NCBI GenBank assembly: GCA_963752285.1
Contig: CAVVXN010000005.1
Coordinates: 1,152,001 to 1,216,000, forward strand
Reading direction: 5' to 3'
DNA length: 64,000 bases
Source of the DNA: an uncultured Planctomycetota bacterium
GTDB lineage: Bacteria > Planctomycetota > PLA2 > JAEUHO01
The notes under the pieces were generated by a model. The model had not been told where the DNA came from. It saw only the letters and a program-made list of their open reading frames with translations, and did not search any database. Made by a program: the position numbers and the translations under genes. This document shows positions 1 through 49,861 of the stretch, one piece after another. How positions within the stretch are numbered: position 1 is the stretch's first letter; every line of letters begins with the position of its first letter.

Positions 1-883
1 GGCGGTGGCCGTCGTGCTGACCGGGCACGGCACGGTCGAGCGCGCGGTGGACCTCATGCGCCTCGGCGCGTTCGACGTGCTGACGAAGCCCTGTCGCGCC
101 GAGGAGATCTCGGCCACCGTCGAGAAGGCGCTCGAGCACCAGGAGGCGCTCCAGGCGAACCGCGACCTGCGCGAACGGCTCCGCGTGCAGGAGAAGCTCG
201 CCATGATCGGCAAGCTCGCCGCGGGCGTGGCCCACGAGCTGAACAACCCGCTCGACGCCGTCCTCCGCTGCGTCCGCCTGACGCGGGAGCACGTGAACGG
301 GAGCGACGAGGCCCGCGAGTTCCTGGACCTCGCCGAGTCGGGCCTGATCCGCATGGCGGACATCGTCCAGAGCCTGCTCACCTTCTCGCGCCACGCCGCC
401 GTCGAGCAGACGCCGCAGGCGCTCGAGGAGGTCCTCGGCGGCGCGATCACGTCGGTCTCGCTCGCCCTCGGCGACGAGGCCCCACCCATGGGTCGCGAGG
501 TGCGCCCCAACGTCTCGCGCCTGCCCGTGCCGCGCGGCCTGCACCAGGTGGTCGTGAACCTCCTCAAGAACGCGTGCGACGCGTCGGGGCCCCAAGCCCC
601 CATCGTCGTCCGCGCGTGGCGGGAGGCCGACGAGCTCGTGGTGGAGGTGGAGGACCACGGGCCGGGCATCCCCGAGGAGGTCCGCGCGCGCGTCTTCGAG
701 CCCTTCTTCACGACGAAGTCCCCCGGTCGGGGCACGGGCCTCGGCCTCCCCCTCTCCGCGCGCCTCGTGGAGAAGTTCGGAGGGCGTATCGGCCTCACGT
801 GTCCGAACGGCGGCGGCACGACGGTCCGTGTCACCCTGCCCGTGACGCACGCCGCGCCCGCGGCCATGCAGGAGGCGCGGTAG
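1..883 (+). CDS. Hybrid response regulator / sensor histidine kinase, 5' truncated by the window edge
   Basis: Receiver C-terminal half (VLTGHG...GAFDVLTKP), H-box AHELNNPL, N-box NLLKNA, G1 DHGPGI, F-box FEPFFTTK, G2 GTGLGL. Confidence 0.9.
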   Translation, partial: AVAVVLTGHGTVERAVDLMRLGAFDVLTKPCRAEEISATVEKALEHQEALQANRDLRERLRVQEKLAMIGKLAAGVAHELNNPLDAVLRCVRLTREHVNGSDEAREFLDLAESGLIRMADIVQSLLTFSRHAAVEQTPQALEEVLGGAITSVSLALGDEAPPMGREVRPNVSRLPVPRGLHQVVVNLLKNACDASGPQAPIVVRAWREADELVVEVEDHGPGIPEEVRARVFEPFFTTKSPGRGTGLGLPLSARLVEKFGGRIGLTCPNGGGTTVRVTLPVTHAAPAAMQEAR

Positions 884-33441: not shown

Positions 33442-34134
33442 CTATCCTTCGCCGCCGTCGTCGGCCTCGGCCCGCCGGTGGCCCTCGGAGCGCCACCACT
33501 GGCGCCACCGGTCGCGGGCCTCGGCGCGCGCCATGGCATCGCCCAGCGCGCGGTAGCCGAACTCGCGCATCGCGAGGCGCCTCAGCGCGCGGGACGCGGC
33601 GAGGCGCACCCCGACGTCGTCGTCGTCGAGACGCTCGATCAGGCTCGGCACGGCGCGGAGACGGCCCCGGTGGCCCAGGTCGTCCGCCGCCTCGCGGCGC
33701 ACCGCCGCCCACGGCCCGGAGAGCCACGCGGTGACCCCCTTCGCCGGTAGCACGGCGAGGATCGAGCGAACGACGGGCGCGGTCGTGGACACGGGGGTGC
33801 CTCCCGGGCCGGACACGGTCTGGTCTCCCGCGCGCCCGAGCGCGTCCAGCGCCGGCGGGCCCGCCGCCACCAGACGTTCCGCGGCGTGCTGGCGCGCCAC
33901 GAAGTCGGACGACGCGAGCCTCGCGACGTCGGCCGCGAGCGTCGCGTCTGCGGGGCGGTCCGCCGCGGGGCCATCCGAGGTCGCGACCCAGGTCGCCGCC
34001 ACGGGAGGCCCGGAGGGGGCCGCCGCGCGGCCCCCGGCTGGGCCGAGCGGACGGCTCGCGCAGGCGGGGAGCAGACACGCGGCCGAGAGGGCCACGAGCC
34101 AGCTCGCGCGGGTCGGGATCGGGGTGGCCGCCAT
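33442..34134 (-). CDS. HEAT-repeat lipoprotein
   Basis: Lipobox LLPA-C; HEAT motifs VRREAADDLG...AVPSLIERLDDDDVGVRLAASRAL. Confidence 0.75.
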   Translation of the reverse strand: MAATPIPTRASWLVALSAACLLPACASRPLGPAGGRAAAPSGPPVAATWVATSDGPAADRPADATLAADVARLASSDFVARQHAAERLVAAGPPALDALGRAGDQTVSGPGGTPVSTTAPVVRSILAVLPAKGVTAWLSGPWAAVRREAADDLGHRGRLRAVPSLIERLDDDDVGVRLAASRALRRLAMREFGYRALGDAMARAEARDRWRQWWRSEGHRRAEADDGGEG

Positions 34135-34224
34135 CGGGAAGCTCGAGACCCAGGCCGGAGCCCGCCACGCCGGGTCGGCGCACGGGCCCCGAGCGGGGCT
34201 CCGCCTTCTATCATCGGCCCATCC

Positions 34225-34587
34225 GTGCAGCGAGGCACCTCCCATCCCAAGTCCGCCCGCCTCCTCGACCGGAGGGACTTTCGTCACGTTCTCGACCACG
34301 GGGAGGTGCATCCGGGCCGGGAGGCGCTCGTCCGGAGAGTCGCCAACGGCCGCGGCCGGCCGCGTCTCGGCCTCTCCACGCCCCGTCGCTACGGGGGCGC
34401 CGTCGCCCGGAACCGCTTTCGGCGGCTCGTCCGGGAAGCGTTTCGTCAGGCCCAACACGATCTCGGCGCGTACGACTACCTCGTGTCCCCGCGACGTCAC
34501 CTGGCGCGTCCGACGCTCCCGGGGATCGCGCGGGACCTCGCCGCGAGCGCCGACCCGACCCGGGCCTCGCACCGGCCGTCACGGTGA
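34225..34587 (+). CDS. rnpA: Ribonuclease P protein component
   Basis: RLLDRRDF, RLGLS, RNR motif AVARNRFRRLVREAFR; GTG start inferred. Confidence 0.88.
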   Translation: MQRGTSHPKSARLLDRRDFRHVLDHGEVHPGREALVRRVANGRGRPRLGLSTPRRYGGAVARNRFRRLVREAFRQAQHDLGAYDYLVSPRRHLARPTLPGIARDLAASADPTRASHRPSR

Positions 34588-34823
34588 TCCGCGCGCTCCT
34601 CCTCCTCCTCGTGCGCGCCTACCGGCTCTTCGTCTCGCCGTGGGTGCCCCCGGTCTGTCGGTTCACGCCCACGTGCGCCCGCTACGCCGAGGAGGCTCTA
34701 CGGCGCCACGGCGCGCTCCGGGGGTCGTGGCTCGCGCTCCGGCGTCTGCTCCGGTGCCGACCCGGGGGGGGCGCGGGCTACGACCCGGTCCCGGAGCGCG
34801 AAGTCAGCGCCCCTCGGCCCTGA
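34584..34823 (+). CDS. yidD: Membrane protein insertion efficiency factor
   Basis: YRLFVSP, CRFTPTCARYA, RRLLRCRP, GYDPVP. Confidence 0.93.
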   Translation: MIRALLLLLVRAYRLFVSPWVPPVCRFTPTCARYAEEALRRHGALRGSWLALRRLLRCRPGGGAGYDPVPEREVSAPRP

Positions 34824-37794
34824 GGTCGATCGTGGTCTCGAGGTCCGACTTCATGCCGAGCCAGGACGAGTCCAGGTACAGGTGCGAGAGGTTCTCCCCC
34901 AATCGCGCCCGCATCACGTCCATCAGCTCGAGCGCGTACCGCGCGGGCGTCAGCGCCTGCGGCGGCGGGAACGCCTGGTCCTTCACGCGCACGAGGAACG
35001 CGGCGTCGGTGCCGTCCGCGCGGTCGTCCCGGAGCATGGTGCGCCCGAGCGTCCCGACCTCGATGCCGTCCTCGCCCTCGCTCTCTTCCTTCGCGGGGCG
35101 CACGACCTCGTAGCCCTGCTGGCGCACGTAGTCCTTGAGCTTCGCCGCGATCTGGGCCTCCTCGGACTCCCCCCCGGGCACGGGAGGGCTCTTCGGCGGG
35201 CTCGGTCCCACGAAGAGGCCCGTCGTGCCCTTCACGTACGGGATGTCCTTCTCCTTGCTCCAGCGCTCGAGCGTCTCGTCCCAGATCGCTTCCCGGTCCG
35301 GCGCCGCCGGCGCCGCCGCGGGCGCCGCGCCGCCCGCCGGCGGGTTCCCCCCGGGGGGCGGTGCGCCCGGCGCGGCCCCGGGCACCGCGCCCGGTGCCCC
35401 TCCCGGTGCCCCTCCCGGTGCGCCCCCCGGCGGAGGCGGGGTCTCGCTGCCGGAGGAGGTCGCCTTCGTGAACGCCGTCTCGTACTCCTTCTTCAGGCTC
35501 TCGAGCGCGTCCACGGCGAGGTCCCGCGCGCGCCGCACGAGGTAGCGCTCGAAGACCGCGTCCCGAACGTCGGCGAGCGGGGGCTCGCGCTCGCCCAGGA
35601 GCTCGATGTTCTGGAGGATCGCCTTCGTGTTGGCGTCGTGGAGGTTCGTCGGCACCGCGGCGAGCTCGCCGGGGTCGTCGAGACCCTGGAAGCCGCCTCC
35701 GGACGTCAGGTTCGGATCGCTTCCGAGATCGGGGAGCGCTTCCCACTGATCGCGCGTCAGGGGCTCCGCGGTCTCGTAGTAGCCGAGATAGCGCGCGTCG
35801 CCGGATCCGGGGAGGAACGGCCCGAGCGGGTCGTCGAGGAGCGACTTCATCGTGACGAGCGCCGGCTCCGCGCCGGGGTCCGGTCCGCCCTTCTCGGCCG
35901 CCTTCTTCGCCTTCTCCCAGTCGTCGTGCGCGGTCTTCGAACGACGCACGCGCTCGAGGAGGTCGTCGAAGACCTTCTCGAAGAACTGCTCGCGGAGCAG
36001 GATCTCGCGCCAGCCCTTCTCGAGGTAGGGCACGCGGTCGGGGCTGGTCTCGGGCACGAGGTCGGGGGGCGGCGGACCGAAGATGTCCTTGTCCGGAACG
36101 AGCACGGCCGGGTGGTCGGGCGCGATCCGCTTCGCGAGCTCGGCCCCGTGGCCGTGCTCCGGGTCCGCCGGGTCCGCCGCCTTGTAGTACGTGTCGGGGT
36201 GGTAGGTCCGCCAGCGCTGGAACGCCTCGGCCTCGTCCGGGTGGTCGTCGGGGAACGCCGCCCACATGCGCCGGAGCACGTCGTTCGGGACGAGCGGGAG
36301 GTGCGCGAAGAGCGCCCGGAACTTGCGCTGCACCGGCAGGCGGAAGTCGTCGCGTACGCCCGGGTCCTGATAGTACTTCTCGAGGTCGCCCTCGTTCCCG
36401 GACTGGAGATCGTCGTCCGTGTCGAGCGCCTCGTCGGGGCCCGCGCTCACGACGGCGAAGCCTCGCGTCAGGGGTTCGACGAGACGTACGCGCAGCGGGT
36501 GCTTCCAGGCGTCCTCGGGGATTTCGCCGAGGGCCGCAAGGACCCGCGGCCCCGGAGCGACCGACGCCTTCGGCCGGCTCGCCTCGGCGGAGAGGTCGTC
36601 ACCGCCGCCGTTCGCGCCGTCCGGTCCGTCCGAGGTGACCACGGCCGTCTCGCCCTCCGCCGGCGGCGCGTACCGGAGCGGGTGGTCCCAGCCGTCGTTC
36701 GGTAGCGAGGTCAGCGGAGCGATCGTCCCGGCCTTGGGCGAGGTGAGCAGTCGCTCGAGCTTCTCGGGCCAGGCGTTCACCGCGTTGTGCCAGCGCGCGA
36801 GCGCGTCCTGGACGCTTCCGAGCGCGGCGAGGGTCTTGACCTCCGCCAGCGTCGACGCGTCCAGGTCGTCGGCGGTCCCGGCCTCGCCGTCCGCGCCCCG
36901 GCTCGAGAGTCTCTCGCCGTCCGAGACGTACTCGAGATCGTGCTTCCAGCCGTCCTGGACGGGCTTCGCGGCGGCGGCGGGCAGGTCCGAGAGCTTCGCC
37001 GGCGCCTTGCCGTCGTGCGCCTTCTTCCAGGCGTCGATCTCGACCTGGACGCGCTCGAACGCGCGGAGCGTGAAGTCGATCGCGGCCAGCCGGTCGCGCA
37101 CCTGCTGGATGCGGGTCCGCGTGGTCTCGATCTGGCGGGCCTTCAGCTGGAAGTCCCGGCCACGAAGCGCGACGTACGCGAGGTCCACCTGCTCGTGCGC
37201 CTTCCGCCACGTCGCGTAGGCGTCGTCGAAGGTCAGGCCGTAGCGGGTCGTGTCCACGAGCGGACGGGCGAACTCGTCCTTCATGACTACGTCGCGCACC
37301 ACGTCCTGGAACTGCGTGGCCGAGCCGCGGAAGTACTCCTGGAGGAACTTGTCGTAGAGCGCGTCGTTGAACTGGAGCCCGTGCATCGCGCCGGAAACGG
37401 CCTCGCGCACCCCGACGGGGAGCTGGAACTCCTCCCCGACGGCGTATCCGGCCTCCCGGGCGGAGCCGGCGAGCATCAGGTGGCTCCAGGTCGTCGGGAT
37501 CCAAGGCTGGCGCGCGCGCAGGCCCTGGAAGTAGACGGAGTACCGGATGGACGGGGACCCGTAGTACTGCAGGAACGCCGTGTACGGCTGGCGGTGGTTC
37601 ACGAAGTCGAGGTCGGAGATGGTGACCCGCTCGGTCGGCGTCGCCGCGAAGGAGCCCGAGTAGTCGCGGCCGCCGACCATCTGCTGCCCGCACTTCACGG
37701 CGCCCACCACCGAGAAGGACACGAGGAGCAGGATCACGAGCCCCAGGAGGATGTGGCGCTCGTACTTCTTCATTCGCTTCGAGAAGCGGCTCAC
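34804..37794 (-). CDS. PpiD/SurA-N-like membrane-anchored chaperone with three inserted GspG-type pseudopilin C-terminal motifs
   Basis: N-terminal anchor ILLGLVILLLVSF; PpiD-like segments EQVDLAYV, LEKYY...FRLPVQRK, PPLADVRDAV; three D-x-W...S-x-G-x-D...DDL motifs. Confidence 0.65.
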   Translation of the reverse strand: MSRFSKRMKKYERHILLGLVILLLVSFSVVGAVKCGQQMVGGRDYSGSFAATPTERVTISDLDFVNHRQPYTAFLQYYGSPSIRYSVYFQGLRARQPWIPTTWSHLMLAGSAREAGYAVGEEFQLPVGVREAVSGAMHGLQFNDALYDKFLQEYFRGSATQFQDVVRDVVMKDEFARPLVDTTRYGLTFDDAYATWRKAHEQVDLAYVALRGRDFQLKARQIETTRTRIQQVRDRLAAIDFTLRAFERVQVEIDAWKKAHDGKAPAKLSDLPAAAAKPVQDGWKHDLEYVSDGERLSSRGADGEAGTADDLDASTLAEVKTLAALGSVQDALARWHNAVNAWPEKLERLLTSPKAGTIAPLTSLPNDGWDHPLRYAPPAEGETAVVTSDGPDGANGGGDDLSAEASRPKASVAPGPRVLAALGEIPEDAWKHPLRVRLVEPLTRGFAVVSAGPDEALDTDDDLQSGNEGDLEKYYQDPGVRDDFRLPVQRKFRALFAHLPLVPNDVLRRMWAAFPDDHPDEAEAFQRWRTYHPDTYYKAADPADPEHGHGAELAKRIAPDHPAVLVPDKDIFGPPPPDLVPETSPDRVPYLEKGWREILLREQFFEKVFDDLLERVRRSKTAHDDWEKAKKAAEKGGPDPGAEPALVTMKSLLDDPLGPFLPGSGDARYLGYYETAEPLTRDQWEALPDLGSDPNLTSGGGFQGLDDPGELAAVPTNLHDANTKAILQNIELLGEREPPLADVRDAVFERYLVRRARDLAVDALESLKKEYETAFTKATSSGSETPPPPGGAPGGAPGGAPGAVPGAAPGAPPPGGNPPAGGAAPAAAPAAPDREAIWDETLERWSKEKDIPYVKGTTGLFVGPSPPKSPPVPGGESEEAQIAAKLKDYVRQQGYEVVRPAKEESEGEDGIEVGTLGRTMLRDDRADGTDAAFLVRVKDQAFPPPQALTPARYALELMDVMRARLGENLSHLYLDSSWLGMKSDLETTIDLRAEGR

Positions 37795-38200: not shown

Positions 38201-39034
38201 ATGGAAGAGGAACGCGCCCCCGAGAGCCCGAGCCAAGCCGCGCCCGGCCGCGCCGCTCCGGTCGGGGGCGGACCGGATGCCGGGGAGGCGGCCCGACCGT
38301 CCGACGAGGCGGCGCCGCCCGAGGCGGCCCCCGCAGGCCCCCGTCCGACGGCGATGCGCGCGACCGAGGACGAGTCCGCGAAGGGCGGGGCGGGATCGGA
38401 GGACGACGCGGCCGAGGACGGGGACGGGGACGAGGACGGGAACGGGGCCGACGAGGCCGCCGCCGGCGCGCGTCCGGCCCGGAAGAAGACGAAGCGCGCG
38501 TTCTCGCCGGTACCGCCGGAACGGCTCGTCGGCGCGGTCGAGGCCATGCTCCTCGCCGCAGGGGACGTGCTGACCCCCGAGCGGCTCCGCGAGCTGCTGG
38601 CGCTCCCGTCCGTGATCCCCGTCCGGGAGGCGGTCGAGGAGGTCGAGCGCCGCTTTCGGGCGGCCGACCTCGCGGTCGAGATCCGCGAGCTCGCCGGCGG
38701 CTGGCGCGTCACGACGCGCCCCGAGTACGCGGAGTACGTCGCGCGCCTGCGGCGCCGGGGCGCGAGCGACCGCCTGAGCCCGAGCCTCCTCGAGACGCTC
38801 TCGATCGTGGCGTACCGCCAGCCCGTGCCGCGCGTGGAGGTCGAGCGGATCCGCGGCGTCGCCTCGGGCGACGCGCTCCGTGCGCTGCTCGACCGACGGC
38901 TCCTCAAGGTCGTCGGCCGGAGCGACCAGCCGGGGCGCCCGCTCCTCTACGGAACCACGCGCCGGTTCCTCGAGGTGTTCGGCCTGTCGAGCCTCTCCGA
39001 CCTCCCGGCGAAGGGCGACCTCCGGGGCCTGTGA
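38201..39034 (+). CDS. scpB: SMC-ScpAB complex subunit ScpB with acidic N-terminal extension
   Basis: LETLSIVAYRQPV..EVERIRGV, GRPLLYGTTRRFLEVFGL..LSDLP. Confidence 0.93.
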   Translation: MEEERAPESPSQAAPGRAAPVGGGPDAGEAARPSDEAAPPEAAPAGPRPTAMRATEDESAKGGAGSEDDAAEDGDGDEDGNGADEAAAGARPARKKTKRAFSPVPPERLVGAVEAMLLAAGDVLTPERLRELLALPSVIPVREAVEEVERRFRAADLAVEIRELAGGWRVTTRPEYAEYVARLRRRGASDRLSPSLLETLSIVAYRQPVPRVEVERIRGVASGDALRALLDRRLLKVVGRSDQPGRPLLYGTTRRFLEVFGLSSLSDLPAKGDLRGL

Positions 39035-39053
39035 GCGACGGCGCGCGGGCGCC

Positions 39054-39974
39054 TCAGCGCGGCTCCGCGAGCAAACGCCCCTCGGGGTCGAACACCCGGA
39101 CGGCGAAGTCGCGGCGCATGCGCTGGCGCCACCGCTCGAACTCCGGTCGCTCGAGCGGGTGCCGACGCAGGTCCTCCTCGAGGCGCGCGACGAGCTCGCC
39201 GCGGGTGCCGGTCCACGGCGCGGTCCGGCCGACGACCTCGTAGACGTGCCACGTCGTGCGGCCCTCTTCGTCCACCCGCAGCGGGCCCACGAGGTCTCCG
39301 TCCGCCGCGGCGAAGAGCCGAGCCTCGACGTCCGGCCACGCGAGATCCCCCCGCGCCACCGAAGGCAGGACGCCGCCGGACTTGCCGGTGGGGTCGATCG
39401 ACTCCTGGAGCGCGGTCAACGCGAAGTCGGCGCCCTGACGCAGCCGCGCGAGCACACGGTCCGCGCGGTCCCGGTCGCCGAGCACGATCACGCGGACGTC
39501 CAGGCGCGGCCGACGGCGCGTGTCGAGTCGGACGATCCGCATCAGGAGGAGCTGCCTGCGAAGTCGGGGCGCGAGGACGTCCCGTTTCCAGCCCTCCACC
39601 GTCGTCTCGTACGCGCGCCGGATCTCGGACGCGAGGTCCACGTCCTCGCCGAACGTCCGGTGGAGCTCGGCCTCGCGCGAAGCCGCCTCCTTCTCCACGG
39701 CTTCCCGCACCGCGTCTCCGGGGACCCGGATCCCCAGCCGATCGGCCTCGCGGACGACGATCGTCTCGTCCACCAGGTCGTCCACCGCGCGGAGCCAGCT
39801 CTCACGCTGGCGGCGGAAGAGGAACGCGGCCAGCTCCGCCGGGGTGACGGGCTGCCCCCCGACGACCGCGACCGCGGACGAGGGCCCCTCCCCCTTGGCC
39901 GCGCCCGGCGTGCCCGCGAGCCCCACGACGGCGACCAACACACCGGCCGCGCAGAGGGCGCGGGCGGCGTTCAC
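39054..39974 (-). CDS. Exported SurA/PrsA-like parvulin peptidyl-prolyl isomerase
   Basis: Signal peptide; AVAVVGGQPVT, LVDETIVVREA (SurA-N); GADFALTALQESIDP..KSGGVL (parvulin); GTG overlaps the upstream stop. Confidence 0.8.
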   Translation of the reverse strand: MNAARALCAAGVLVAVVGLAGTPGAAKGEGPSSAVAVVGGQPVTPAELAAFLFRRQRESWLRAVDDLVDETIVVREADRLGIRVPGDAVREAVEKEAASREAELHRTFGEDVDLASEIRRAYETTVEGWKRDVLAPRLRRQLLLMRIVRLDTRRRPRLDVRVIVLGDRDRADRVLARLRQGADFALTALQESIDPTGKSGGVLPSVARGDLAWPDVEARLFAAADGDLVGPLRVDEEGRTTWHVYEVVGRTAPWTGTRGELVARLEEDLRRHPLERPEFERWRQRMRRDFAVRVFDPEGRLLAEPR

Positions 39975-40561
39975 CGGCTGACCGCCTTGTTCCAGGCGGC
40001 CTTCGCCTTCTGGACGTCGCGGCTCGTGCAGTGCTCCGGGTTGAACATCCCGATGTCCGGGTCGTGTTCCGCGCCGCGGTACCACGTGTTCAGGATCTGG
40101 CTCACGAGGACGCGCGTCGTGACGTCGTCGTCTCCCAGGAGCTTGATCAGCTTGGTCTTGGCGAAGTACGCCCGCGGTTTGCGCCCGTTCGGCGCCTTCT
40201 CGGCGAGGTCGGGATCGGTGTTCCTCGCCCGGGACTCCATCAGCGCCTGCGCCGCCTTCTCCCGCAGGTCCTTCGGAGCGGTCTTGTCGGACACCATCTT
40301 GACGAGGTCCTCCGCCGTCACGCTGCCGCGCGCCTTGAACTCCTTCTCGCTGTACGACTTGTAGAGCTCGATCTCCCGGTATCGCTCGTCGCGGCGCGCG
40401 AGCTCGGCGACCTGGCCCAGCCGGAGGGCCGCCTCGTCGAGCGCCCGGGAGAGCGCATCCACGTCGGTCGGCTCGTCCGACGCCGACGGCCCACCGACGG
40501 CGGTCGTCGCCCCCACGAGGAAGACCAGGGCCAGGGGTAGCAGGAGGAGGCGGCGGGACAT
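39971..40561 (-). CDS. Exported hypothetical helical (HEAT-like) protein
   Basis: Signal peptide; SD GGAGG; LREKAAQAL and LLGDDDVTTR HEAT-like motifs. Confidence 0.7.
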   Translation of the reverse strand: MSRRLLLLPLALVFLVGATTAVGGPSASDEPTDVDALSRALDEAALRLGQVAELARRDERYREIELYKSYSEKEFKARGSVTAEDLVKMVSDKTAPKDLREKAAQALMESRARNTDPDLAEKAPNGRKPRAYFAKTKLIKLLGDDDVTTRVLVSQILNTWYRGAEHDPDIGMFNPEHCTSRDVQKAKAAWNKAVSR

Positions 40562-40680
40562 GGGAGGGACCTCCAGAGGCGTCCCATCCTATCGGCTCGG
40601 TCGCGCCCCGACGAGGCTCGCTGCGGTCGCAGGGCCCGCGGGCGGCGTCGGCGGGCGCGGTCGGCGCGGGCTCCCTCTCC

Positions 40681-42180
40681 TCAGCGGTACTTGACGATGA
40701 CGTCCTGCTGCGCGCCCCCGCACCGGGTGCAGAGGTATTCGACGGTCTCGCCGGTCTGGAACGTCTTGCTGAGCAGGCCCTCGCCGTGGCAGGTCGAGCA
40801 GGGCCGGAACTCGCGCTCACCCAGCTCGAACAGGTCGGAGTGCTCGATGAAGTACGCGAGGACCCAGTTGGAGCGCTCGTTGGGCTTGCTGGCCGCCCAC
40901 CATCCGTCCCGGGTCGGCGGCTTGGGGATGTCGATCGCGGGCGCGGCGCCCCCGCTCTTGCTCGAGGACTTGTGCGTGCCCCCGCCCCGGTTGCCCTTGC
41001 GCTGCGGCGGCTTGATCTTGGGCGGGTTCACGATGAACGTGCCCGCCCCGTAGCTCACGCGCGACCACGGCGCCTTGAAGCGCCCCTGGCGGCGCCCCTG
41101 CCAGAAGGTCTGGGCCTCGGCGGGCGTCACGTCCTCGTCGTAGCGCTTCATCTCGCGCTCGGCGAGACGGGCGAACGCGGCCTCCGGCAGCTTCTGGCGG
41201 GTCCACGAGGTGATGTCGTTGATCTGGACGTCCTTCTCGCGGACCTTGTCGTCGATCAGGTCGCCGACGATCTTCACGAAACGGCGTCCGGCGACGGTCT
41301 CGAAGTAGCTCGTCCGCTCCTGCTGGAGGTCCTTCTTCAGGTCCTCGAGCTTCTCCTTCACGGCGTCGCTGGCATCGGGGTGCTTCTCGCCGAAGCCGTC
41401 GAGGATCTCCTTCACGCGCTTGAAGAAGTGCATCTGCAGCTTCATCCGCGCGTCCTTCAGCGTTTCCAGCGCGGCCTGGTCCTGGAGCAGGCTCTCGATG
41501 CGGGCCAGGCGGTCCTTCGCGATGTCCTTGTTCAGGTACTCGTCGTCGGCCGCGCACGCCGCGTAGCTGTCGCGGGCCTCCTCCAGCGCGCCGGCCCACT
41601 CGGCGTACTGGGCGATGCGCCAGTGCTCGCGCGAGGTGAGGGCGCCCGGGTCGAGCCCCTTCTGCTCCATCTCCGACTTGAGCTGCTCCTTCATTCGCGT
41701 CATCAGCTGGTCGGGGCTCCAGATCTGGCGCGCGTCGAGCGGCTCTTCCTCGATGGTGAGGACCTTCCCCCGGGGGATCTCGACGATGTCGCCCCCGCGG
41801 CGGAGCTTGACCACCCGGTCGTCGCTCGACTCCACGAGCCCGAGCACCTCGTCGGTGTCGCCGCCGTCGAGCTGGATCGTGACCCGGTTCCCCGTCACGG
41901 GGCCCTGGTCGACGCTCTTGATCCCGATCTCCTCCTCGATCTTGTCGCGGTCTTCCGGATCGAGCGCATCCCACGCGAACGAGCGGTACGCGCCCGACAC
42001 GTAGTCCTCCACCGTGACCTGCTTCTCGTCGGTCCGCTCCTGGATCACACGGCCCTTGATCGCCTCGCCGGTCCGCAGGCGGATGACGTCGGCGCGTGCG
42101 AGGAGGGTGAGCGGCGCGAGCAGGAGGAACGCGCCGAGGAGGGGCAGGAGTGCGCGGCGCCGGTTCGAGCTCGGAGTCAT
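40681..42180 (-). CDS. Exported protein with C-terminal CxxCxGxG...CxxCxG motif
   Basis: Signal peptide ending ARA-D; DVIRLRTGEAIKG module; TPR-like helices; CSTCHGEG and CTRCGG. Confidence 0.8.
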   Translation of the reverse strand: MTPSSNRRRALLPLLGAFLLLAPLTLLARADVIRLRTGEAIKGRVIQERTDEKQVTVEDYVSGAYRSFAWDALDPEDRDKIEEEIGIKSVDQGPVTGNRVTIQLDGGDTDEVLGLVESSDDRVVKLRRGGDIVEIPRGKVLTIEEEPLDARQIWSPDQLMTRMKEQLKSEMEQKGLDPGALTSREHWRIAQYAEWAGALEEARDSYAACAADDEYLNKDIAKDRLARIESLLQDQAALETLKDARMKLQMHFFKRVKEILDGFGEKHPDASDAVKEKLEDLKKDLQQERTSYFETVAGRRFVKIVGDLIDDKVREKDVQINDITSWTRQKLPEAAFARLAEREMKRYDEDVTPAEAQTFWQGRRQGRFKAPWSRVSYGAGTFIVNPPKIKPPQRKGNRGGGTHKSSSKSGGAAPAIDIPKPPTRDGWWAASKPNERSNWVLAYFIEHSDLFELGEREFRPCSTCHGEGLLSKTFQTGETVEYLCTRCGGAQQDVIVKYR

Positions 42181-42223
42181 CGGGTCTTCCTTCCGGAGCG
42201 GGACGGGACGGGACGGGGCGCCG

Positions 42224-42637
42224 TCACGGCGACCCGCCCGACTGGGGATCGAACGTGGACCGGGTCAGCGGCAGCGGGACGAGCGCGCGCACGGCGGTGC
42301 CCTGGTACTTGATCGTCGCGAGCGCCACGATGCGGTCGCCACCGAACGGGCTCGGTACGAAGTCCGCGTCGAGGGTGAAGTCGGGTTGCGACAGGGGGAG
42401 GTCGCGGATCTTCGGAGGGACGCCGCCGGGCTTCAGCGCGTCGAACGCGTCCTGCAGCCGGACGTACGCCTCGCGGCGGACCTGCTGGAGCCGCGCCTCG
42501 ACCTTGCGGTCCACGAGCTCCCGGGTCCCCATCGCGAAGAGCGACAGGATGGCGACCGCGCCCACGAGGAGCATGCCCAGCGCGAGCAGCACCTCGAGGA
42601 ACGTGAAACCGGCCGTGGTCCGTCGCGCGAAGGTCAT
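42224..42637 (-). CDS. Prepilin-type minor pilin/pseudopilin (GspI/PilV-like)
   Basis: Class III signal G|FTFLE plus hydrophobic helix; 137 aa; ATGA overlap with the upstream gene. Confidence 0.85.
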   Translation of the reverse strand: MTFARRTTAGFTFLEVLLALGMLLVGAVAILSLFAMGTRELVDRKVEARLQQVRREAYVRLQDAFDALKPGGVPPKIRDLPLSQPDFTLDADFVPSPFGGDRIVALATIKYQGTAVRALVPLPLTRSTFDPQSGGSP

Positions 42638-43893
42638 CGGCTCGCTCCGCGCGCGAAGCGGTCGTGGAAGAGCAGCTTGACCGTCGCGCTCGTCGAGAGA
42701 CCCACGTACACCTGGCTCGCCGCGTCGTGGTCCATCGCGGGGGTGCCGCGCTGCCCGCGCTCCACCGGGATCTTCCCGAGCGCGAGGTCCACGCGAAGCG
42801 GCCGGTACCGCATCCACTCGCCGTCTACCTTCAGCCATCGCTCGTCCGGACCGGGCCCGACGAGCGGGAGGGCGTCCTCGACCGTGATCGCGGTCGCGTC
42901 GCGCGCGATGTCGTCCACCAGGGCCGTGTCGCCGCGTCCGAGGCCGAGCGCCGTGGGCGCCACGAGCGTCGTCTCGAGGCGCACCCAGGCGGGGAACACG
43001 TCGTCGCTCGGGTCGCCGAGGCTCTCGGGCCCCGCGAAGAGCGGGAACTGGCGGTCGAGTCCGCGCGTGCTGTCCCAGATCGGCCCGACGTACGCCTCGG
43101 TCTCGCGCACCGGCCCACTCGTCGGCTCCCAGCTCCGGGCGAACACCCGGCGCCACGTCGCGCCGAGGTAGAGGACGCCCGTCGCGACCGCCGAGCACCG
43201 CTCGTGGATCTGCTCGCGCGAGTCCAGGTTCTTCGGGTCGAGCAGCGACCTCGGCCCGCCTACCGGCGAGCGCCAGCCGCGGTACACCGTGAGGAGCCCG
43301 GGGAACCGCTCGTCCTCGGGGACGGCCACGTAGCAAATCTCGCGGAGCCCGCCGGTCGGCCGGAACGCGGTGTCGAGCGTCGCCTTGTCGAGCTCGGCCG
43401 GCTCCAGGTCCTTCAGGTCCGGCCCCGAACGCTCCCCCGCGCGGCGGATCCACGGGTCGCTGCGGTCCTCGCTGATGTCCGTGGTCCAGGCCATGTACCA
43501 GGCGGGAAGGCTCTTCAGCGGGCCCTCCGGGACGTCGCGGAGCGTGATCCAGCAAGCCCGAAGGCGGACGTCTTCGGGTGGGGGCGGCGGGCGGTCGTGC
43601 CCCTGGAGCTTCTCCTCCTCGGTCGGCGGCGGGGGCGGCGGGTCGAAGGACGCTGGGATCGCGAGCCCCTCGAAGTCGCGCACGATGCGCGGGAGCATCG
43701 TCTCGGTCCGGTCCTGCAGCGACGACTCCGTCGTGCCGGTCGCGAAGATGCCGAGCCCCTGCCGCATCATGTAGACGACGAACGTGCCGAGGATCGAGAA
43801 CACGCTGATCGCGAGCAAGAGCTCCACCATCGTGAAGCCGCGCCGGGACGCGGCGCCCCGGGCGCTGGCGACGCGCAGCACGGGCCCGGTCAC
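42634..43893 (-). CDS. Prepilin-type minor pilin/pseudopilin (GspJ/PilW-like), 419 aa
   Basis: G|FTMVELLLAISVFSILG; FPAWVRLETTL; C-terminal beta module ending RGQRGT...H. Confidence 0.85.
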   Translation of the reverse strand: MTGPVLRVASARGAASRRGFTMVELLLAISVFSILGTFVVYMMRQGLGIFATGTTESSLQDRTETMLPRIVRDFEGLAIPASFDPPPPPPTEEEKLQGHDRPPPPPEDVRLRACWITLRDVPEGPLKSLPAWYMAWTTDISEDRSDPWIRRAGERSGPDLKDLEPAELDKATLDTAFRPTGGLREICYVAVPEDERFPGLLTVYRGWRSPVGGPRSLLDPKNLDSREQIHERCSAVATGVLYLGATWRRVFARSWEPTSGPVRETEAYVGPIWDSTRGLDRQFPLFAGPESLGDPSDDVFPAWVRLETTLVAPTALGLGRGDTALVDDIARDATAITVEDALPLVGPGPDERWLKVDGEWMRYRPLRVDLALGKIPVERGQRGTPAMDHDAASQVYVGLSTSATVKLLFHDRFARGASR

Positions 43894-45110
43894 GGCGCAC
43901 CTCCCGTCGGGGGTCCCTGGACCATGCGCTCCTCCACGGTCCCGTAGAGGCCGAGTCTCAGCTCGATCACCGACCCCTCCACCTTGCCGCCCATCTCCTG
44001 GAAGAGCAGCACGACGTCGCTCGCGTGCACGTCGGGGTCGAGCCGACCGTTCCGGTACGTGACGCGGACCGGCGCCTTCGGCCGGAGGAGCGCCACACCG
44101 TCCACGAGGCGCTCCATCTCGGCGGCACGGAACACGCCCGAGAGCACGAACTCGTCCATGCGTCCGTTGAAGGGCGTCGCTCCGTCCGAGATCGACAGCG
44201 GCGCGGCGCCCGACTCGGGGACCGTGATGCGCTTCACGGGCGCGCTGGCGAGCTCTTCGGTCCCCTGCGGCCGCTTCCGGGCCATCTGGTAGCGCTCGAG
44301 CCCGTCCACGCGCATCGACACCTCGCTGCCGTCGAAGGTGACCGCGAGGTGCGTCCACGTCGTCCCGTCCGCCCGGATCGGCGAGCCCTTCGTCGAGAAC
44401 TCCTCCAGCACGCCGGGCGAGGGCCGATCCGAGACCGGTTCGAGCTGCATCTTGAGACGCACGTCGTATGCGGCGTCGTTTCCGTTGCGCACGAGATCGA
44501 GCGCCCAGGCGCCCTCGGCCTTCGCGATCGTCATGACCGGACCGCCCGCGTCCACGGCCAGCCAGACGGAGAGGCCGAGCCCCTCCGTCATCGCGAAGCT
44601 CGACTGCGGCTCGAAGAGGATGCTCGCGTTCCTCGTGAACCGCGCCGCCTGTCCGGTGTAGCCGTCCGGCACGATCTCCACGCCGGTGCTCGACCGGACG
44701 GGGTAGTCGCCGCTCGCGCCGTCGAGGCGCTCGAAGTTGTCGGTGAGGACGGGCGCGTTGACGGCCGCGCCGATCACGAGGCTCCCGTCGCGCGACCGCG
44801 TCCGGAGGTTCCAGATCGCACGCACGCCGCCGTTGCTGCTCTGGATGCAGGCGTACGCCGTCTCGCGGAGGATCGCCAGGGACTGCGCCGCGCGCGAGGC
44901 GTGGCCGGTGTTGGTCAGGAAGCCGACCCCGATCCCCATGATCATGCCCATGATCGCCATCACGAGCATCACCTCGAGGAGGGTGAACCCACGCGGGCGA
45001 GGCGAGCCCGCCGCGCGCCGACGACGGCGGGCGGCGCCGGGACCGGGGCCCCGGCGTGCGCGGGTCCGCACGACCGACGACGGCTCGGGGGTCGGGCGGG
45101 CTAGTCCCAC
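43890..45110 (-). CDS. Prepilin-type minor pilin (GspH/FimT-like) with LamG/concanavalin-like domain
   Basis: G|FTLLEVMLVMAIMG; LamG motifs LSVWL...WTHLAVTFDG...VDG...FNGRMDEF. Confidence 0.85.
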   Translation of the reverse strand: MGLARPTPEPSSVVRTRARRGPGPGAARRRRRAAGSPRPRGFTLLEVMLVMAIMGMIMGIGVGFLTNTGHASRAAQSLAILRETAYACIQSSNGGVRAIWNLRTRSRDGSLVIGAAVNAPVLTDNFERLDGASGDYPVRSSTGVEIVPDGYTGQAARFTRNASILFEPQSSFAMTEGLGLSVWLAVDAGGPVMTIAKAEGAWALDLVRNGNDAAYDVRLKMQLEPVSDRPSPGVLEEFSTKGSPIRADGTTWTHLAVTFDGSEVSMRVDGLERYQMARKRPQGTEELASAPVKRITVPESGAAPLSISDGATPFNGRMDEFVLSGVFRAAEMERLVDGVALLRPKAPVRVTYRNGRLDPDVHASDVVLLFQEMGGKVEGSVIELRLGLYGTVEERMVQGPPTGGAP

Positions 45111-45760
45111 GACTTGACGTCGTCCTGCGTGTTCGGGATGCCGTCCGGGCCCGCGCTGAAGATCTGGAAGCTATCGGGCTGCGCGAAGCCGGTCCGACCC
45201 TCCGCCTCGTACTTCCAGGGCTTCGGGGTCATCTCCTCGCCGCTCGCGGTCGTGTACGAGGGCGGGCTCTCGGTGGCGCGGGCGTACTCGGTGTGGGGGA
45301 AGTAGAAGAGCGGGTTGCCCCAGCCGTCCACGATCTCCCAGAGCTTCTTCCCCTGGCTCGTCACGGCCTCGGAGAGCTCGTCGTCGTCGGTGTTCACGAG
45401 GTCCTTGTCGCCCAGGTCCACCTTCACGCCCGCCGTCTCCCAGTAGAGCGCCTGGAAGAGGGACTCGATCCCCTCGTTGCTCGAGTTGGGGAGCGCCTTG
45501 ATCGACTTCGTGCCCCCGGCGCCGCTCTGGATGCGTCGGGCGTCGATCGGCGGGTAGCGCCCGAACCGCTGGTAGTACGCGTTCGTGGCGACGGAGAGCT
45601 TCCGGATGCGCGTCTCCGTCTCGAGCTGGGGCCGCTTCCTCGACCAGAGGGAGAGACCGACGAACGCGAGCCCCGCGAGCACGGAGAGGATGCCCATCAC
45701 CACGAGCACCTCGATGAACGTGAAGCCCCGCTCTCCTCGAGCCGGTCTCGTCGCTCGCAT
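45101..45760 (-). CDS. GspG-like major pseudopilin/pilin
   Basis: G|FTFIEVLVVMGIL; YYQRFGRYPP; DGWGNPLFY; FSAGPDGIPNTQDDVKSW. Confidence 0.88.
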   Translation of the reverse strand: MRATRPARGERGFTFIEVLVVMGILSVLAGLAFVGLSLWSRKRPQLETETRIRKLSVATNAYYQRFGRYPPIDARRIQSGAGGTKSIKALPNSSNEGIESLFQALYWETAGVKVDLGDKDLVNTDDDELSEAVTSQGKKLWEIVDGWGNPLFYFPHTEYARATESPPSYTTASGEEMTPKPWKYEAEGRTGFAQPDSFQIFSAGPDGIPNTQDDVKSWD

Positions 45761-45789
45761 GTCGGACCTCCCGACTCCCGGGCGGGGAG

Positions 45790-48786
45790 TCACTTTCGTC
45801 TCACGATGCGGATCTCGCCCACCTCGATCTTGAACGCCTGGGCCTGCGTGGACCAGCCGAGGATCGCGAGGCGCGCCTTGCCACGACCGCGGCCCTTGAA
45901 CACGCCGATGGTGTCCTCGGCGATCTTCATCCCCTCGAGCCCGTCGTCGAGGTTCGTGTCGAGGTACACGGCCAGCTTGCCGGCGTCCGCGTCCTCCCGG
46001 GTGATCCGGATCTCGACCCAGCCGTCGCTCGGCCACGCCGTCTCGGGCGAGACCCTGAGCATCTCGCCGCTCTTGTACGTGTCGTCGCGACCGCCCGCGA
46101 TGCGCACGGCGAGCTTGCCCCGGTCGTAGAAGATCCCGATCCCGGGGGGGAGCCCGCCGGTGCGCGCGCCGCCGCCGCCGGCCCGGTCGATCTCCACGCC
46201 GAACGTCACCAGGTTCATGCTCGCGCCGCGATCGTCGCGGAGCGGGATCCGCACGCGGACCCGGACGTCCTCCATGGTGCCGACCGTCATCAGGTCGTCG
46301 GCGCCGAACACGGCGACCGTGGGGTCGTCGTAGGTCCCGTCGTCCTTGGCGACGCCCTCGATCTCGACCTTCTCGTCCTCGACCCGCGCCCTGACGCCAT
46401 GGGACTCGGCCTGCTCCCACCCCGCGGGGAGGCTCGTTCCGTCGAACGTGACGACCTTCTCCTCGAGGCTCCGCCAGTGCTTGACGGCCTCCAGCGTGTC
46501 GGACGCGTAGTCCCGCCAGGGGCGCCACTCGCCCTCGTCGCCCTCGGGCACCTTGTCCTTCACGAGCTGGAAGTGCCGGATGCAGTCGTCGTACTCGCCG
46601 ATCTGATAGTCGCAGTACGCCCGGAGGGCGAGGGCGCCCGGCTGCTCGGCGTCGATCTTCTGGAGGACGTGGTCCGCCACCGCGCCCGCGGCGGTGAACC
46701 GGTGGCGCGCCGGCTGCCGCGCGTCGTGGAGCTTGATCCAGCACTCGCGCAGCTCCGAGCGGAAGGCCTTCGGGTCGCGCTTCGCCTCGGTGCTCGAGGC
46801 GCGCTCCGCGAACGCCACGGCCGCGTCGAAGTCCTTCGAGGTCTCCTCGAGGGGGGTCCCGGCCGCGAGGGCCTGGATCGCCACGTCGAGCCGGCTGCGC
46901 GCGAGCCACCCGTCGAGCTCGGGATAGACCTGCGCCTCCCCCAGCGCCCGACCGAACGAACGCACCGCGACGGCGGTGTTGCCGTCGCGCTGGGCCACCC
47001 AGCCCGCCAGGTAGTCGTGGTACGCGACACCGGGGGCCTCCTCCTTCGCGCGCTGCAGAGAGGCCAGCAGCTCCCCCGCGTTGCCGGTGGCCAGCGCGAT
47101 CAGCGCGAAGCCGAACGCCGGAGACACGCTCTCGTCGGCGAAGCGCCGCGGCGCCGCGCCGAAGCTCAGCGCGCGCTCCGCCGCCGTGAACGCGGCCCGC
47201 GCCGCGCCGCCCTGCCCCATCCGCCAACAGGCGAGGCCGAGGTCGTAGAGCGCCTGGGCGCGGTAGGTGAGCGCCTCCTCTCCGGTCGAAGTGGCGGCCC
47301 CGAGGAACGCGTCGCGGGCGGCCTGGAGGTCGCCCTTCGCGTACGAGATCGCGCCCTTCACGAGGAGTGCACGCGGCGAGGTCCCCGCGGAGGCCGCACC
47401 TTCGAACGCGGAGCCCGCGCCGGCCAGGTCGCCCAGCCGCAGCAGGGCCTCGGCGGTACGCACCTGGGCCCGCGGGTCGGGCGCGGCCTGCCGGTAGGCG
47501 GCGACCGCCTCGTCGTGCCGCCCGAGCGCCGCGAGCGCGTCCCCGAGCCCGATGCTCGCGTCCGCGTTCCGTCCGCGGTCGAGCGCCGCGCGGAAGTAGG
47601 GCACGGCCTCGGCGGGCAGCGACAGGCGATCGAGGTAGAGCTGCCCGAGCCAGAGCCACGGCTCGGGCCGGGTGGGAGACACCCGCGCGTACTCGGAGAG
47701 GGTGTGGAGCACCGCCTCCTCGTCCTGGAGCGCCGAGTACGCGTGCACGAGCTCCAGCAGGATGTCGGCGCGAAGCGCCGGGACGCCGCGCTCGCGGGCC
47801 ACCGTGAGCGCGCGTTCGAGGAGGTCCACGGCCCGCCGCCAGCCGGCGCGGTCTTCCTTGCCCGTCTTCCCGGTCGCCGCCATCTCCTCGGCGGCCTGCC
47901 GGAGCGCGGAGATATCGGTGGACTGCGAGAGGTCGGCCGAGAGGCCGTGTCGCCTGAGGGCTTCGGCGTACAGGTTGTCCACCGTGGAGCGGAGCACCCA
48001 CTCGTCGAAGCGCTTCGCCGACGACGTGGACACGTTCTCGCGGCGCTTCTTGATCACGTCGGTCGGAGTCAGCGCCTTCGACGCCGTCTCCTCGCCGCCG
48101 ACGAGCGCCCACTCCACCTCGAGGTCCTCCCACCCGGGCGCGTGCCGCGCCAGCTCCCACTTGAGCGGCTGGAAGTGCGCGTCGTCCTCGCGATAGAGCG
48201 TGCCGCCGTCCTTGATGCCCTTGATGTAGACGTAGACCTTGCGCCCGCTGCTGTCGACGGCGATGTCGTACACGTCCGCGGCCACGGGCTGGTAGTCCTG
48301 GAAGTGCGGGTCCTGGATCTCGGGGATCGACGATCCGTCGTCCACCTTGAGCTCGGGGAGCGGACCGCGGAGCAGGTACCGCGCGCCGGGCGCCGGACCC
48401 GGGATCGTGGGTGGCAGCGAGAAGGAGAGCGGCAGCCACGGCGGGTCGTCCAGCGTCACCGGCGGCAGGCCGTGCGTGTCGGAGTGCTTCTGGAAGGGGT
48501 TCCGCGCGTCCGGCCCGAGCCCGAGCGACGGACGCGCCAGCGGGTCACCCGACGGGTCGAGGATCTGCGACGCGACGACGCGGTCGGTCGAGGCGGAAGC
48601 GTGTCCGCTCCCCACCTTCTCGGGCGTGCACTGCCAGAGCGTGAAGAGGAAGAGGACGCCCGAGAAGAGGAGGAGCGCCTTCTCCTTCCCGAGGCTCTTG
48701 TCGAGGACGACGGTCGCCGCGATCGCGAGGAGCCCCGCGAAGAGGAAGCCGACGAACGTCAGGAACGCACCGGCGAGCACGATCAT
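45790..48786 (-). CDS. Large membrane-anchored TPR protein (998 aa) in the pilP position
   Basis: Two N-terminal TMs, RNPF motif, many TPRs, C-terminal beta-rich domain; ATGA overlap with the pilO-like gene. Confidence 0.75.
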   Translation of the reverse strand: MIVLAGAFLTFVGFLFAGLLAIAATVVLDKSLGKEKALLLFSGVLFLFTLWQCTPEKVGSGHASASTDRVVASQILDPSGDPLARPSLGLGPDARNPFQKHSDTHGLPPVTLDDPPWLPLSFSLPPTIPGPAPGARYLLRGPLPELKVDDGSSIPEIQDPHFQDYQPVAADVYDIAVDSSGRKVYVYIKGIKDGGTLYREDDAHFQPLKWELARHAPGWEDLEVEWALVGGEETASKALTPTDVIKKRRENVSTSSAKRFDEWVLRSTVDNLYAEALRRHGLSADLSQSTDISALRQAAEEMAATGKTGKEDRAGWRRAVDLLERALTVARERGVPALRADILLELVHAYSALQDEEAVLHTLSEYARVSPTRPEPWLWLGQLYLDRLSLPAEAVPYFRAALDRGRNADASIGLGDALAALGRHDEAVAAYRQAAPDPRAQVRTAEALLRLGDLAGAGSAFEGAASAGTSPRALLVKGAISYAKGDLQAARDAFLGAATSTGEEALTYRAQALYDLGLACWRMGQGGAARAAFTAAERALSFGAAPRRFADESVSPAFGFALIALATGNAGELLASLQRAKEEAPGVAYHDYLAGWVAQRDGNTAVAVRSFGRALGEAQVYPELDGWLARSRLDVAIQALAAGTPLEETSKDFDAAVAFAERASSTEAKRDPKAFRSELRECWIKLHDARQPARHRFTAAGAVADHVLQKIDAEQPGALALRAYCDYQIGEYDDCIRHFQLVKDKVPEGDEGEWRPWRDYASDTLEAVKHWRSLEEKVVTFDGTSLPAGWEQAESHGVRARVEDEKVEIEGVAKDDGTYDDPTVAVFGADDLMTVGTMEDVRVRVRIPLRDDRGASMNLVTFGVEIDRAGGGGARTGGLPPGIGIFYDRGKLAVRIAGGRDDTYKSGEMLRVSPETAWPSDGWVEIRITREDADAGKLAVYLDTNLDDGLEGMKIAEDTIGVFKGRGRGKARLAILGWSTQAQAFKIEVGEIRIVRRK

Positions 48787-49760: not shown

Positions 49761-49861
49761 GGCTCAGCTCCCGAGGTCGAGAGGCCCCGCCGTCGGCCCG
49801 GAGCCGGCGGGGGTCCTCGGACCGCCCGAGGGGTTCACGGAACGTGCGCGCGAGGCGGGGG

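Follow-up and report, generated by a model that had tools for sequence, protein, structure and literature searches.

Here we describe a gene on the minus strand, at 34804..37794, of a window of 64,000 nucleotides from an uncultured Planctomycetota bacterium (GenBank assembly GCA_963752285.1, contig CAVVXN010000005.1, positions 1,152,001 to 1,216,000). Its product, P0001, has 996 amino acids (aa). With a probability of roughly 0.65, the gene is its lineage's sole orthologue of PpiD-type, membrane-anchored chaperones, and carries an insert of pseudopilin heads that act as additional satellite domains. PpiD is an inner-membrane-anchored periplasmic chaperone, and the GspG head is known as the subunit of a filament. 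Here, the head is reused as a periplasmic module that has no prepilin leader.

This amounts to a natural experiment. One family has placed three pilin heads at the hinge of the one PpiD-type chaperone that it has; the sister family has the plain chaperone, and the genomic setting is the same in both. The lineage is uncultured. Its architecture for this protein is secure, and should surprise specialists in pilins and in chaperones alike.

The gene and its parts

An earlier note on this DNA, made from the sequence alone, had described one open reading frame (ORF) here with three tandem GspG head motifs; that frame is exactly the one in the ORF listing, and the motifs are where they were said to be. 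The window is about 74% G+C, and the frame has the composition of coding DNA (G+C of 0.95 at third and 0.48 at second codon positions), uniformly along the gene. A word-indexed search delivered 11 homologues at 31-49% identity, which form the family alignment called A2. All 11 share the start residue of P0001 in that alignment. All 11 also carry the Pfam family T2SSG (PF08334); the source of one, a Planctomycetota metagenome-assembled genome, lists it as a hypothetical protein. The parts of the gene are as follows.

34804..37794, minus strand: whole gene, 996 aa, GTG start, monocistronic (ORF listing, coding composition, family alignment, AlphaFold2 model)
37672..37794, minus strand: residues 1-41, cytoplasmic N-terminus with many K and R, a single hydrophobic membrane helix (about 14-33) and invariant Cys35 (sequence; helix 2-29 in the model)
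37162..37671, minus strand: residues 42-211, N part of the SurA/PpiD-type chaperone (NC) domain (Z 10.5 to LIC12922, 9.2 to SurA, 7.8 to PpiD-YfgM; E 6e-37 to insert-less relatives)
36865..37161, minus strand: residues 212-310, long helix (212-259) and head module 1 (T2SSG 17.4 bits, profile 17-101; PulG 5o2y, Z 9.0)
36571..36864, minus strand: residues 311-408, head module 2, the most complete, with alpha1C-like helix, alpha-beta loop, sheet and calcium loop (T2SSG 32.2 bits; PulG 1t92, Z 10.1; EpsG 4lw9, Z 9.6)
36400..36570, minus strand: residues 409-465, head module 3, truncated to sheet and calcium loop (T2SSG 14.0 bits, profile 63-100)
35455..36399, minus strand: residues 466-780, parvulin-like domain (strands 489-498, 670-674 and 711-733), followed by a long helix, 740-781 (3gpk, Z 7.1)
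35296..35454, minus strand: residues 781-833, low-complexity linker rich in Pro, Gly and Ala (model confidence below 50 for 786-828; gaps in other members)
34807..35295, minus strand: residues 834-996, C part that completes the NC domain (SurA-type alignments end at 989-996; profile alignment with insert-less relatives to column 922)

The N-terminus, rich in K and R and followed by about 20 hydrophobic residues, is predicted from sequence and model to be a single membrane anchor. Because this is the one membrane helix, with its positive end inside, the rest of the protein should be periplasmic. K6, K9, E12, R13 and C35 are invariant near the N-terminus in the family. The anchor region aligns with the N-termini of relatives that have SurA_N_3 and no insert.

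Cys35 (37690-37692, minus strand) stands directly past the membrane helix. It is invariant in 12 of 12 aligned family members, and the relatives that have no insert do not conserve a cysteine to match it. A lipobox at this position was considered and rejected by eye; the residue before the cysteine is K, Q, D, S, T or G, with no consistent G, A or S. The linker at 781-833, about 50 residues, is far longer in P0001 than in its relatives, where it is largely absent, and is disordered in the model.

Three GspG heads that are not pilins

T2SSG is the sole Pfam family that P0001 matches at E <= 1, and its 51.6 bits (E 1.1e-13) are well over the cut-off, which is 21. The three motifs lie at 36865-36954, 36595-36696 and 36409-36513 on the minus strand, and a six-frame pattern scan found them nowhere else in the window. 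Taken singly, modules 1, 2 and 3 score 17.4, 32.2 and 14.0 bits, the internal matches that the earlier note had expected. The first two span T2SSG profile positions 16/17-101, which is to say helix, alpha-beta loop and sheet. Module 3 spans positions 63-100 only, having the sheet and loop and no helix. Searched with the whole family profile, all Protein Data Bank sequences gave GspG, EpsG and PulG chains only (eight rows, best E 3e-4). From NCBIfam, the sole match to P0001 is the model for GspG, at 29.4 bits, below its cut-off of 88.85.

The loop G-x-D...D-D binds calcium in GspG, as is known from work on EpsG and PulG. Throughout the family (11 of 11 members), each of the three modules keeps this pattern, and it aligns with the EpsG loop. 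The invariant residues are G300, D302, D309 and D310 in module 1; W342, P343, G390, G393, D399 and D400 in module 2, with D392 nearly so; and D428, W430, S450, G452, D454 and D461 in module 3. The D-x-W that opens the sheet of each module is also invariant, and lies outside the calcium loop. Judging from these residues, the loops of the heads possibly bind calcium.

What the heads do not have is equally informative. P0001 gives no match to the prepilin N-methylation family PF07963 at E <= 1, and the pattern scan finds the prepilin motif only in four neighbouring pilin genes; the absence of a prepilin cleavage site, claimed before, thus holds. Unlike GspG, PulG and EpsG, P0001 lacks a leader peptide and a site for prepilin peptidase, and neither Glu5 nor the hydrophobic alpha1N is present; its heads are three tandem copies inside another protein, the third of them without a helix. 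Because the leader and alpha1N that define pseudopilins are absent, P0001 is not a pseudopilin, and the heads cannot be processed or polymerised as pilins. It is best classed with the PpiD-type chaperones.

The three heads are nearer to one another than to the pilins with which they were compared. Module 1 matches module 2 at E 5e-8 and module 2 matches module 3 at 8e-8, compared with 1e-5 for the canonical GspG of the same genome (C5:1130885-1131310). The hidden Markov model (HMM) of each module cross-matches the other modules; module 3, for example, is matched by the module-1 HMM at 30.6 bits and by the module-2 HMM at 15.8 bits. Because the modules match each other better than they match canonical GspG or P0013, the neighbouring pilin, and because their HMMs cross-match, the sequences suggest that a single head of the GspG type was captured and then duplicated internally. 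P0013 was considered as the donor of the insert and rejected, since the modules lie nearer to each other and to the canonical GspG.

The heads are as conserved as the chaperone core, with mean pairwise identities of 0.35-0.39 for the modules and 0.37-0.39 for the core. Exactly three modules are found in 39 of 42 family proteins; the others (P0026, P0033 and P0038) have four or five HMM matches.

Flanks related to PpiD and SurA

The sequences on either side of the heads are linked to chaperones through intermediates. A profile search of 1.84 billion representative sequences gave 64 proteins at E <= 1e-30, about 35-40 of them full length. Throughout A2, the modules keep a common register. The profile search also matched proteins of 684-761 aa over profile positions 1 to about 175. 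Ten insert-less relatives, of 641-761 aa, were aligned as A3. Four of these carry SurA_N_3 above its cut-off (P0122, 40.5 bits; P0154, 36.0; P0133, 32.1; P0112, 28.0), four more match it weakly, so that eight of the ten do so at E <= 0.01, and two give no match. T2SSG is found in none of the ten.

Profile against profile, A2 and A3 are plainly homologous (hhalign probability 99.9, E 6e-37, columns 1-922 against 4-668). The alignment pairs the first 227 residues and roughly the last 330, and the region of the modules has no counterpart. A3, in turn, aligns with E. coli PpiD, taken from NC_000913 (probability 94, E 1.4e-7, PpiD residues 99-275), across the junction at which the heads are placed in P0001. 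Residues 465-996 were also compared with the ESM Atlas, where the best named clusters were Rotamase_2 and "putative ppiD", at 0.87-0.88; these are under the 0.9 mark and are a lead only. The earlier proposal that the flanks resemble PpiD is therefore supported through structure and transitive profile homology; the part of it that foresaw direct Pfam matches to SurA_N or rotamase in P0001 itself did not hold.

A model with three kinds of fold

The AlphaFold2 model, built from an alignment of 11 sequences, has a mean predicted local distance difference test (pLDDT) score of 82.2 and a predicted template-modelling score of 0.62. Low confidence is limited to residues 1-5, 25-42, 786-828, 903-908 and 993-996. 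With the whole model as query, the top Foldseek match is the PpiD-YfgM complex (8zht_A, E 1.8e-3, probability 0.94). Next come EpsG/GspG chains (E about 3e-2, probability 1.00, template-modelling scores of 0.64-0.68 by target length), and then SurA. Comparison with PulG and with PpiD had been suggested beforehand, and the model recovers both a T2SSG-like fold and a core of the SurA/PpiD type.

Pairwise alignments with VIA-align assign these folds to parts of the model. For the heads, PulG 1t92 aligns with residues 311-408, module 2, at Z 10.1 (93 aligned, root-mean-square deviation (rmsd) 2.3), EpsG 3fu1 aligns with the same module at Z 9.9, and PulG 5o2y aligns with 231..373, module 1, at Z 9.0 (92 aligned). 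For the core, LIC12922 (3nrk) gives Z 10.5 (183 aligned, rmsd 6.0), SurA 1m5y gives Z 9.2 (151 aligned, rmsd 3.8, model 42-989) and PpiD-YfgM 8zht_A gives Z 7.8 over 415 aligned residues. The alignments to SurA, LIC12922 and PpiD run over model residues 42 to 989-996, from one flank to the other.

Between the two parts of the core, parvulin domains align with model residues 485-738, and cover nearly the whole of the target chain. The best is a peptidyl-prolyl isomerase (PPIase) of the PpiC type, 3gpk (Z 7.1, 101 of 108 aligned, rmsd 2.7), followed by 4g2p (6.8), 8sot (6.7) and 2pv1 (6.4), of which 4g2p and 2pv1 are SurA PPIase domains. In the model this domain is broken by a conserved excursion of about 170 aa. 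A parvulin-type domain between the N and C core parts is therefore suggested by predicted fold.

A search independent of Foldseek, over 48,161 representative chains, returned only four at Z >= 8: LIC12922 (10.5), EpsG 4lw9 (9.6) and SurA twice (9.2 and 8.4). The PulG filament (7.9) and PpiD-YfgM (7.8) come next, and 28 chains reach Z >= 5. The weight of this search lies in the fact that the top of an unbiased list holds only three kinds of fold, and that these are the three expected.

P0001 can be set beside three known systems. Like E. coli PpiD (8zht), it has a single N-terminal anchor, a periplasmic body and a core built from N and C segments, with a parvulin-type domain between them; it differs in having three GspG heads just before the parvulin-like domain, an excursion within that domain, and a long low-complexity linker. 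Like GspG, PulG and EpsG (1t92, 3fu1, 4lw9, 5o2y), it has the head fold, at Z 9-10 and rmsd 2.3-3.5 over 92-105 residues, with G-x-D...D-D invariant. Like SurA (1m5y, 2pv3) and the SurA-like LIC12922 (3nrk), it has a core (Z 9.2-10.5) on which satellite domains are hung. SurA itself is soluble and has two parvulin satellites, whereas P0001 is membrane-anchored and has three pilin heads and one parvulin-like domain.

Where the heads were inserted, and in whom

The earlier note had placed the insert between two segments that are adjacent in PpiD. This was borne out in two ways. In G264, an orthologue of 736 aa from the sister family, the segment that precedes the insert in P0001 runs straight into the segment that follows it; this protein has a weak SurA_N_3 match and no T2SSG match. 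In the hhalign comparison of A3 with E. coli PpiD, both segments at the junction align with consecutive segments of PpiD, just before its parvulin domain. Further, the module HMMs match none of 11 insert-less proteins (the ten of A3 and G264) at E <= 10, with a positive control of 78-112 bits.

The genome that holds the window (4.64 Mb, 89% complete) has only one gene matched by the A3 profile, which is the gene described here. Its other genes with SurA_N_3 or Rotamase_2 are SurA/PrsA types with signal peptides. Thus, this is the only membrane-anchored gene of the PpiD type found in it.

The insert is a mark of one family. Among 301 sampled Planctomycetota genomes, the full form is found once in each of ten genomes of the same family (10 of 10); elsewhere there are N-terminal or head-only matches. 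Among 40 genomes of the order, the full form is present in all 28 other genomes of the family, in some of them cut by contig ends. The 11 genomes of the sister family include eight with N-terminal-only matches, one with a head-only match and two with none. The eight N-terminal-only frames are 369-1035 aa long, and six of them fall within 697-838 aa.

Public sequencing runs added a little to this. Each run covers at most 0.15 of the sampled words of the stretch, no RNA run is listed among those that match, and only short contig pieces were obtained. One piece, 188 bases long and the same as the window in every base, crosses from the N domain into the insert; it may come from the source sample and so is not independent. 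Another, of 453 bases and 94% identity, spans modules 1 and 2.

A proposed role for the heads, and what weighs against it

In E. coli, according to PMC9643414, PpiD forms a complex with YfgM, contacts SecY, SecE and SecG, and promotes translocation. By extension, P0001 would still act as a translocon-proximal chaperone at the translocon exit. Its core, of N and C segments, carries satellites on an excursion from the core: first the three heads, and then the parvulin-like domain. Here, the heads may serve as additional satellites, rigid and possibly stabilised by calcium, which might bind a client or partner, or give a binding cradle its shape, in the manner of SurA and its parvulin satellites.

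Several points weigh against assigning P0001 to the PpiD type and giving it this role. Neither of its flanks matches any Pfam family at E <= 10, rotamase included. Within the family, SurA_N_3 is matched weakly by only two of 11 members (best E 0.0015). Compared directly by hhalign, A2 and E. coli PpiD reach a probability of only 4%, which is not significant. The Foldseek E-values of the whole model are poor, both for PpiD-YfgM and for EpsG, and the VIA-align superposition on PpiD-YfgM has an rmsd of 13.8; Z values of 7-10 are, for large multi-domain models, middling. The association with SecYEG, the binding of calcium and the clients of P0001 are all predictions, and the role of the heads as satellites is drawn by analogy.

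Nor was a clear YfgM partner found in a search of the genome with PF09976 (TPR_21). That search delivered only weak, generic matches to tetratricopeptide repeats (TPR), all in large ORFs, and two genomes with the insert did not differ in this from three without it. The same source (PMC9643414) has ppiD in almost all bacteria and yfgM restricted to the alpha-, beta- and gamma-proteobacteria. The finding bears on how PpiD chooses its clients, and on how it acts where YfgM is missing. If the heads bind pilins or the pilus machine, they would be a direct link between Sec export and the assembly of type IV filaments. If they do not, they would still be a new satellite-domain solution for chaperones of the SurA/PpiD type.

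Might the heads act on pilins?

One alternative, proposed in the earlier note, is that P0001 is a pilin-directed chaperone, nucleator or decoy. Here, the heads would mimic those of pseudopilins, and so could dock prepilins emerging from Sec, serve them as a template or cap them; or they would dock the chaperone on the assembly platform. The modules do keep the pseudopilin head fold and the signature of the calcium loop. Further, prepilins are inserted by the signal recognition particle and the Sec translocon, as PMC4471445 has it, and this is where PpiD acts (PMC9643414). And the gene stands at the end of a cluster of pilus-type genes, of which these are the nearest members.

39054..39980, minus strand: small secreted SurA/PrsA-like PPIase, a separate gene (Rotamase 27.6 bits; weak SurA_N_3 and Rotamase_2)
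40681-42180, minus strand: secreted protein of 499 aa, without a Pfam family, conserved in the cluster (window scan and related loci)
42224..45760, minus strand: pseudopilin operon with four prepilin-type genes (N-methylation motifs at 45704, 44967, 43816 and 42587; Pfam N_methyl)
45101-45760, minus strand: P0013, a "GspG-like" pilin within that operon, with a prepilin N-methylation motif

Farther upstream on the minus strand, the cluster comprises a secreted ORF of 196 aa, the secreted ORF of 499 aa, the four prepilin-type genes, a TPR protein, an ORF of 325 aa, PilM, a forkhead-associated (FHA) protein and a sigma-54 activator. Its order (window 38201-56775) is kept in four of four genomes of the same family, in the insert-less sister-family genome of G264, and in five of six further genomes (two more from the sister family, three from other families); in the sixth, scpB alone is seen. 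In this arrangement, a ppiD-like gene ends a conserved cluster of PilM, GspG-like, pseudopilin and SurA-like genes. Gene order kept so widely is unusual, and it sets two folding factors beside an operon of the pilus type.

The linkage is equal, though, for orthologues that have no insert. Thus, it says nothing specific about the heads, and the co-occurrence with a pilin operon that was to be looked for is present without discriminating between the readings. The gene scpB, on the other strand, also parts the gene from the cluster. The earlier statement that the same motif ends a GspG-like pilin 8 kb away stands as to the protein, since P0013 exists and ends with the quoted tail; "GspG-like" is loose, since P0013 gives no T2SSG match at E <= 0.001, and the modules stand nearer to one another, and to the canonical GspG farther off, than to P0013. 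The genome has only some 14 prepilin motifs, so its load of pilins is not unusual. Heads without alpha1N, of course, cannot enter a filament in the usual way.

Leaderless heads also occur on proteins unrelated to this one. Three other large ORFs of the same genome each carry one leaderless GspG-head module, at 28-33 bits for PF08334.

C4:206962-207207: leaderless module (PF08334)
C1:576750-576941: leaderless module (PF08334)
C5:706626-706853: leaderless module (PF08334)

Inspected by eye, one of these modules ends a repeat-bearing frame of 1818 aa, one ends a secreted protein of 736 aa, and the third lies within a protein like P0085, which itself has a weak TraB/PrgY/GumN match. In public libraries there are proteins of 450-500 aa that combine a seemingly ordinary signal peptide with three to four tandem T2SSG modules (P0084, P0086, P0088, P0102, P0103, P0105, P0111), and also HEAT-repeat proteins with two to three such modules (P0079, P0106, P0132, P0150). 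An N-methylation motif was found in none of the 16 leaderless-module proteins that were inspected. Together these look like an undescribed class of non-pilin "pilin-head" proteins. The papers searched, judged by titles and the openings of abstracts and with subscription journals outside coverage, describe neither a fusion of PpiD with a pseudopilin nor leaderless T2SSG modules.

These proteins resemble P0001 in having GspG heads outside pilins and no prepilin motif (for example P0084 and P0088, and the four HEAT fusions); they differ from it in having other scaffolds and no chaperone domains. Because leaderless heads are found on such unrelated proteins, among them HEAT-repeat, TraB/GumN-like and other large proteins, a pilin-specific role is less compelling, and a general periplasmic module is more likely. 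We therefore regard a pilin-directed function as unlikely. This holds equally for its most explicit form, where the heads would be pilin mimics built into the translocon's chaperone, catching prepilin heads at SecYEG or docking on the platform, and so coupling Sec insertion to filament assembly; we doubt that this is so. Were it true, the linkage of ppiD-like and pseudopilin genes in several Planctomycetota families would reflect an old functional partnership, made permanent in one family through the capture of a domain, and the leaderless heads of other periplasmic proteins would serve generally as tags for recruitment to type IV filament machines.

Other explanations

A more modest proposal is that the tandem heads, possibly calcium-stabilised, are a passive spacer that merely lengthens or stiffens the arm carrying the parvulin-like domain, and have no binding of their own. 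A spacer might well be built from modules in tandem, vary slightly in copy number as the family does, tolerate the truncation of module 3, and resemble those secreted proteins that are three or four such modules in a row. It would not be expected, conversely, to be as conserved as the chaperone core, or to keep invariant residues outside the calcium loop (W342-P343, and the D-x-W with which each sheet opens). P0001 also has a plain linker already, at residues 781-833. The idea that the heads are spacers is thus an improbable one, and satellites with a binding role are preferred.

Two further explanations can be dismissed quickly. That the gene is an assembly chimera or a mis-called ORF is extremely improbable, because the same architecture recurs in every one of the family's 28 other genomes, in separate assemblies, and three modules are found in 39 of 42 library proteins, full-length and fragments alike; the uniform coding composition and the read piece of 188 bases across the boundary agree with this, and the check for a chimera proposed in the earlier note was passed. 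That P0001 is a true pseudopilin, or else a subunit of a pilus, bearing a giant extension would explain the T2SSG match, and has next to no chance of being right given a protein that has no prepilin motif, whose N-terminus aligns with PpiD-like proteins, and whose heads are internal and not behind an alpha1N helix.

The immediate neighbourhood

Three genes adjoin the target, and a fourth lies just beyond rnpA.

33442-34140, minus strand: HEAT-repeat protein, with a lipoprotein-like signal by eye (PF13646, 30.8 bits; in 7 of 10 related loci)
about 34201-34587, plus strand: rnpA (PF00825, 78.1 bits)
34584-34823, plus strand: yidD (PF01809, 95.2 bits)
38201..39034, plus strand: scpB, divergent from the 5' end of the target (PF04079, 165.4 bits)

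The genes rnpA and yidD converge on the 3' end of the target, which yidD overlaps by 20 bases. Because they do so, and because scpB diverges from its 5' end, the target is taken to be monocistronic. Each of yidD, rnpA and scpB is beside the target in 10 of 10 related loci, where the order is HEAT lipoprotein, rnpA, yidD, target, scpB, SurA-like; the SurA-like and HEAT genes are each present in 7 of 10, these loci being of limited length. The setting of rnpA-yidD, scpB and the SurA-like gene occurs with and without the insert. In the stretch at 39054..39980, the first nine codons precede the signal peptide of the SurA-like protein.

HEAT repeats, as in the lipoprotein-like neighbour, are elsewhere the commonest partner of leaderless T2SSG modules. 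The secreted protein of 499 aa has two Cys-x-x-Cys motifs in its last 40 or so residues, and its C-terminal piece gives 21 bits for the CXXCXGXG zinc finger of DnaJ, under the cut-off of 32.7. Lastly, yidD follows rnpA here as it usually does, but what comes next is a convergent ppiD-like gene instead of yidC, and this is so in 10 of 10 related loci.

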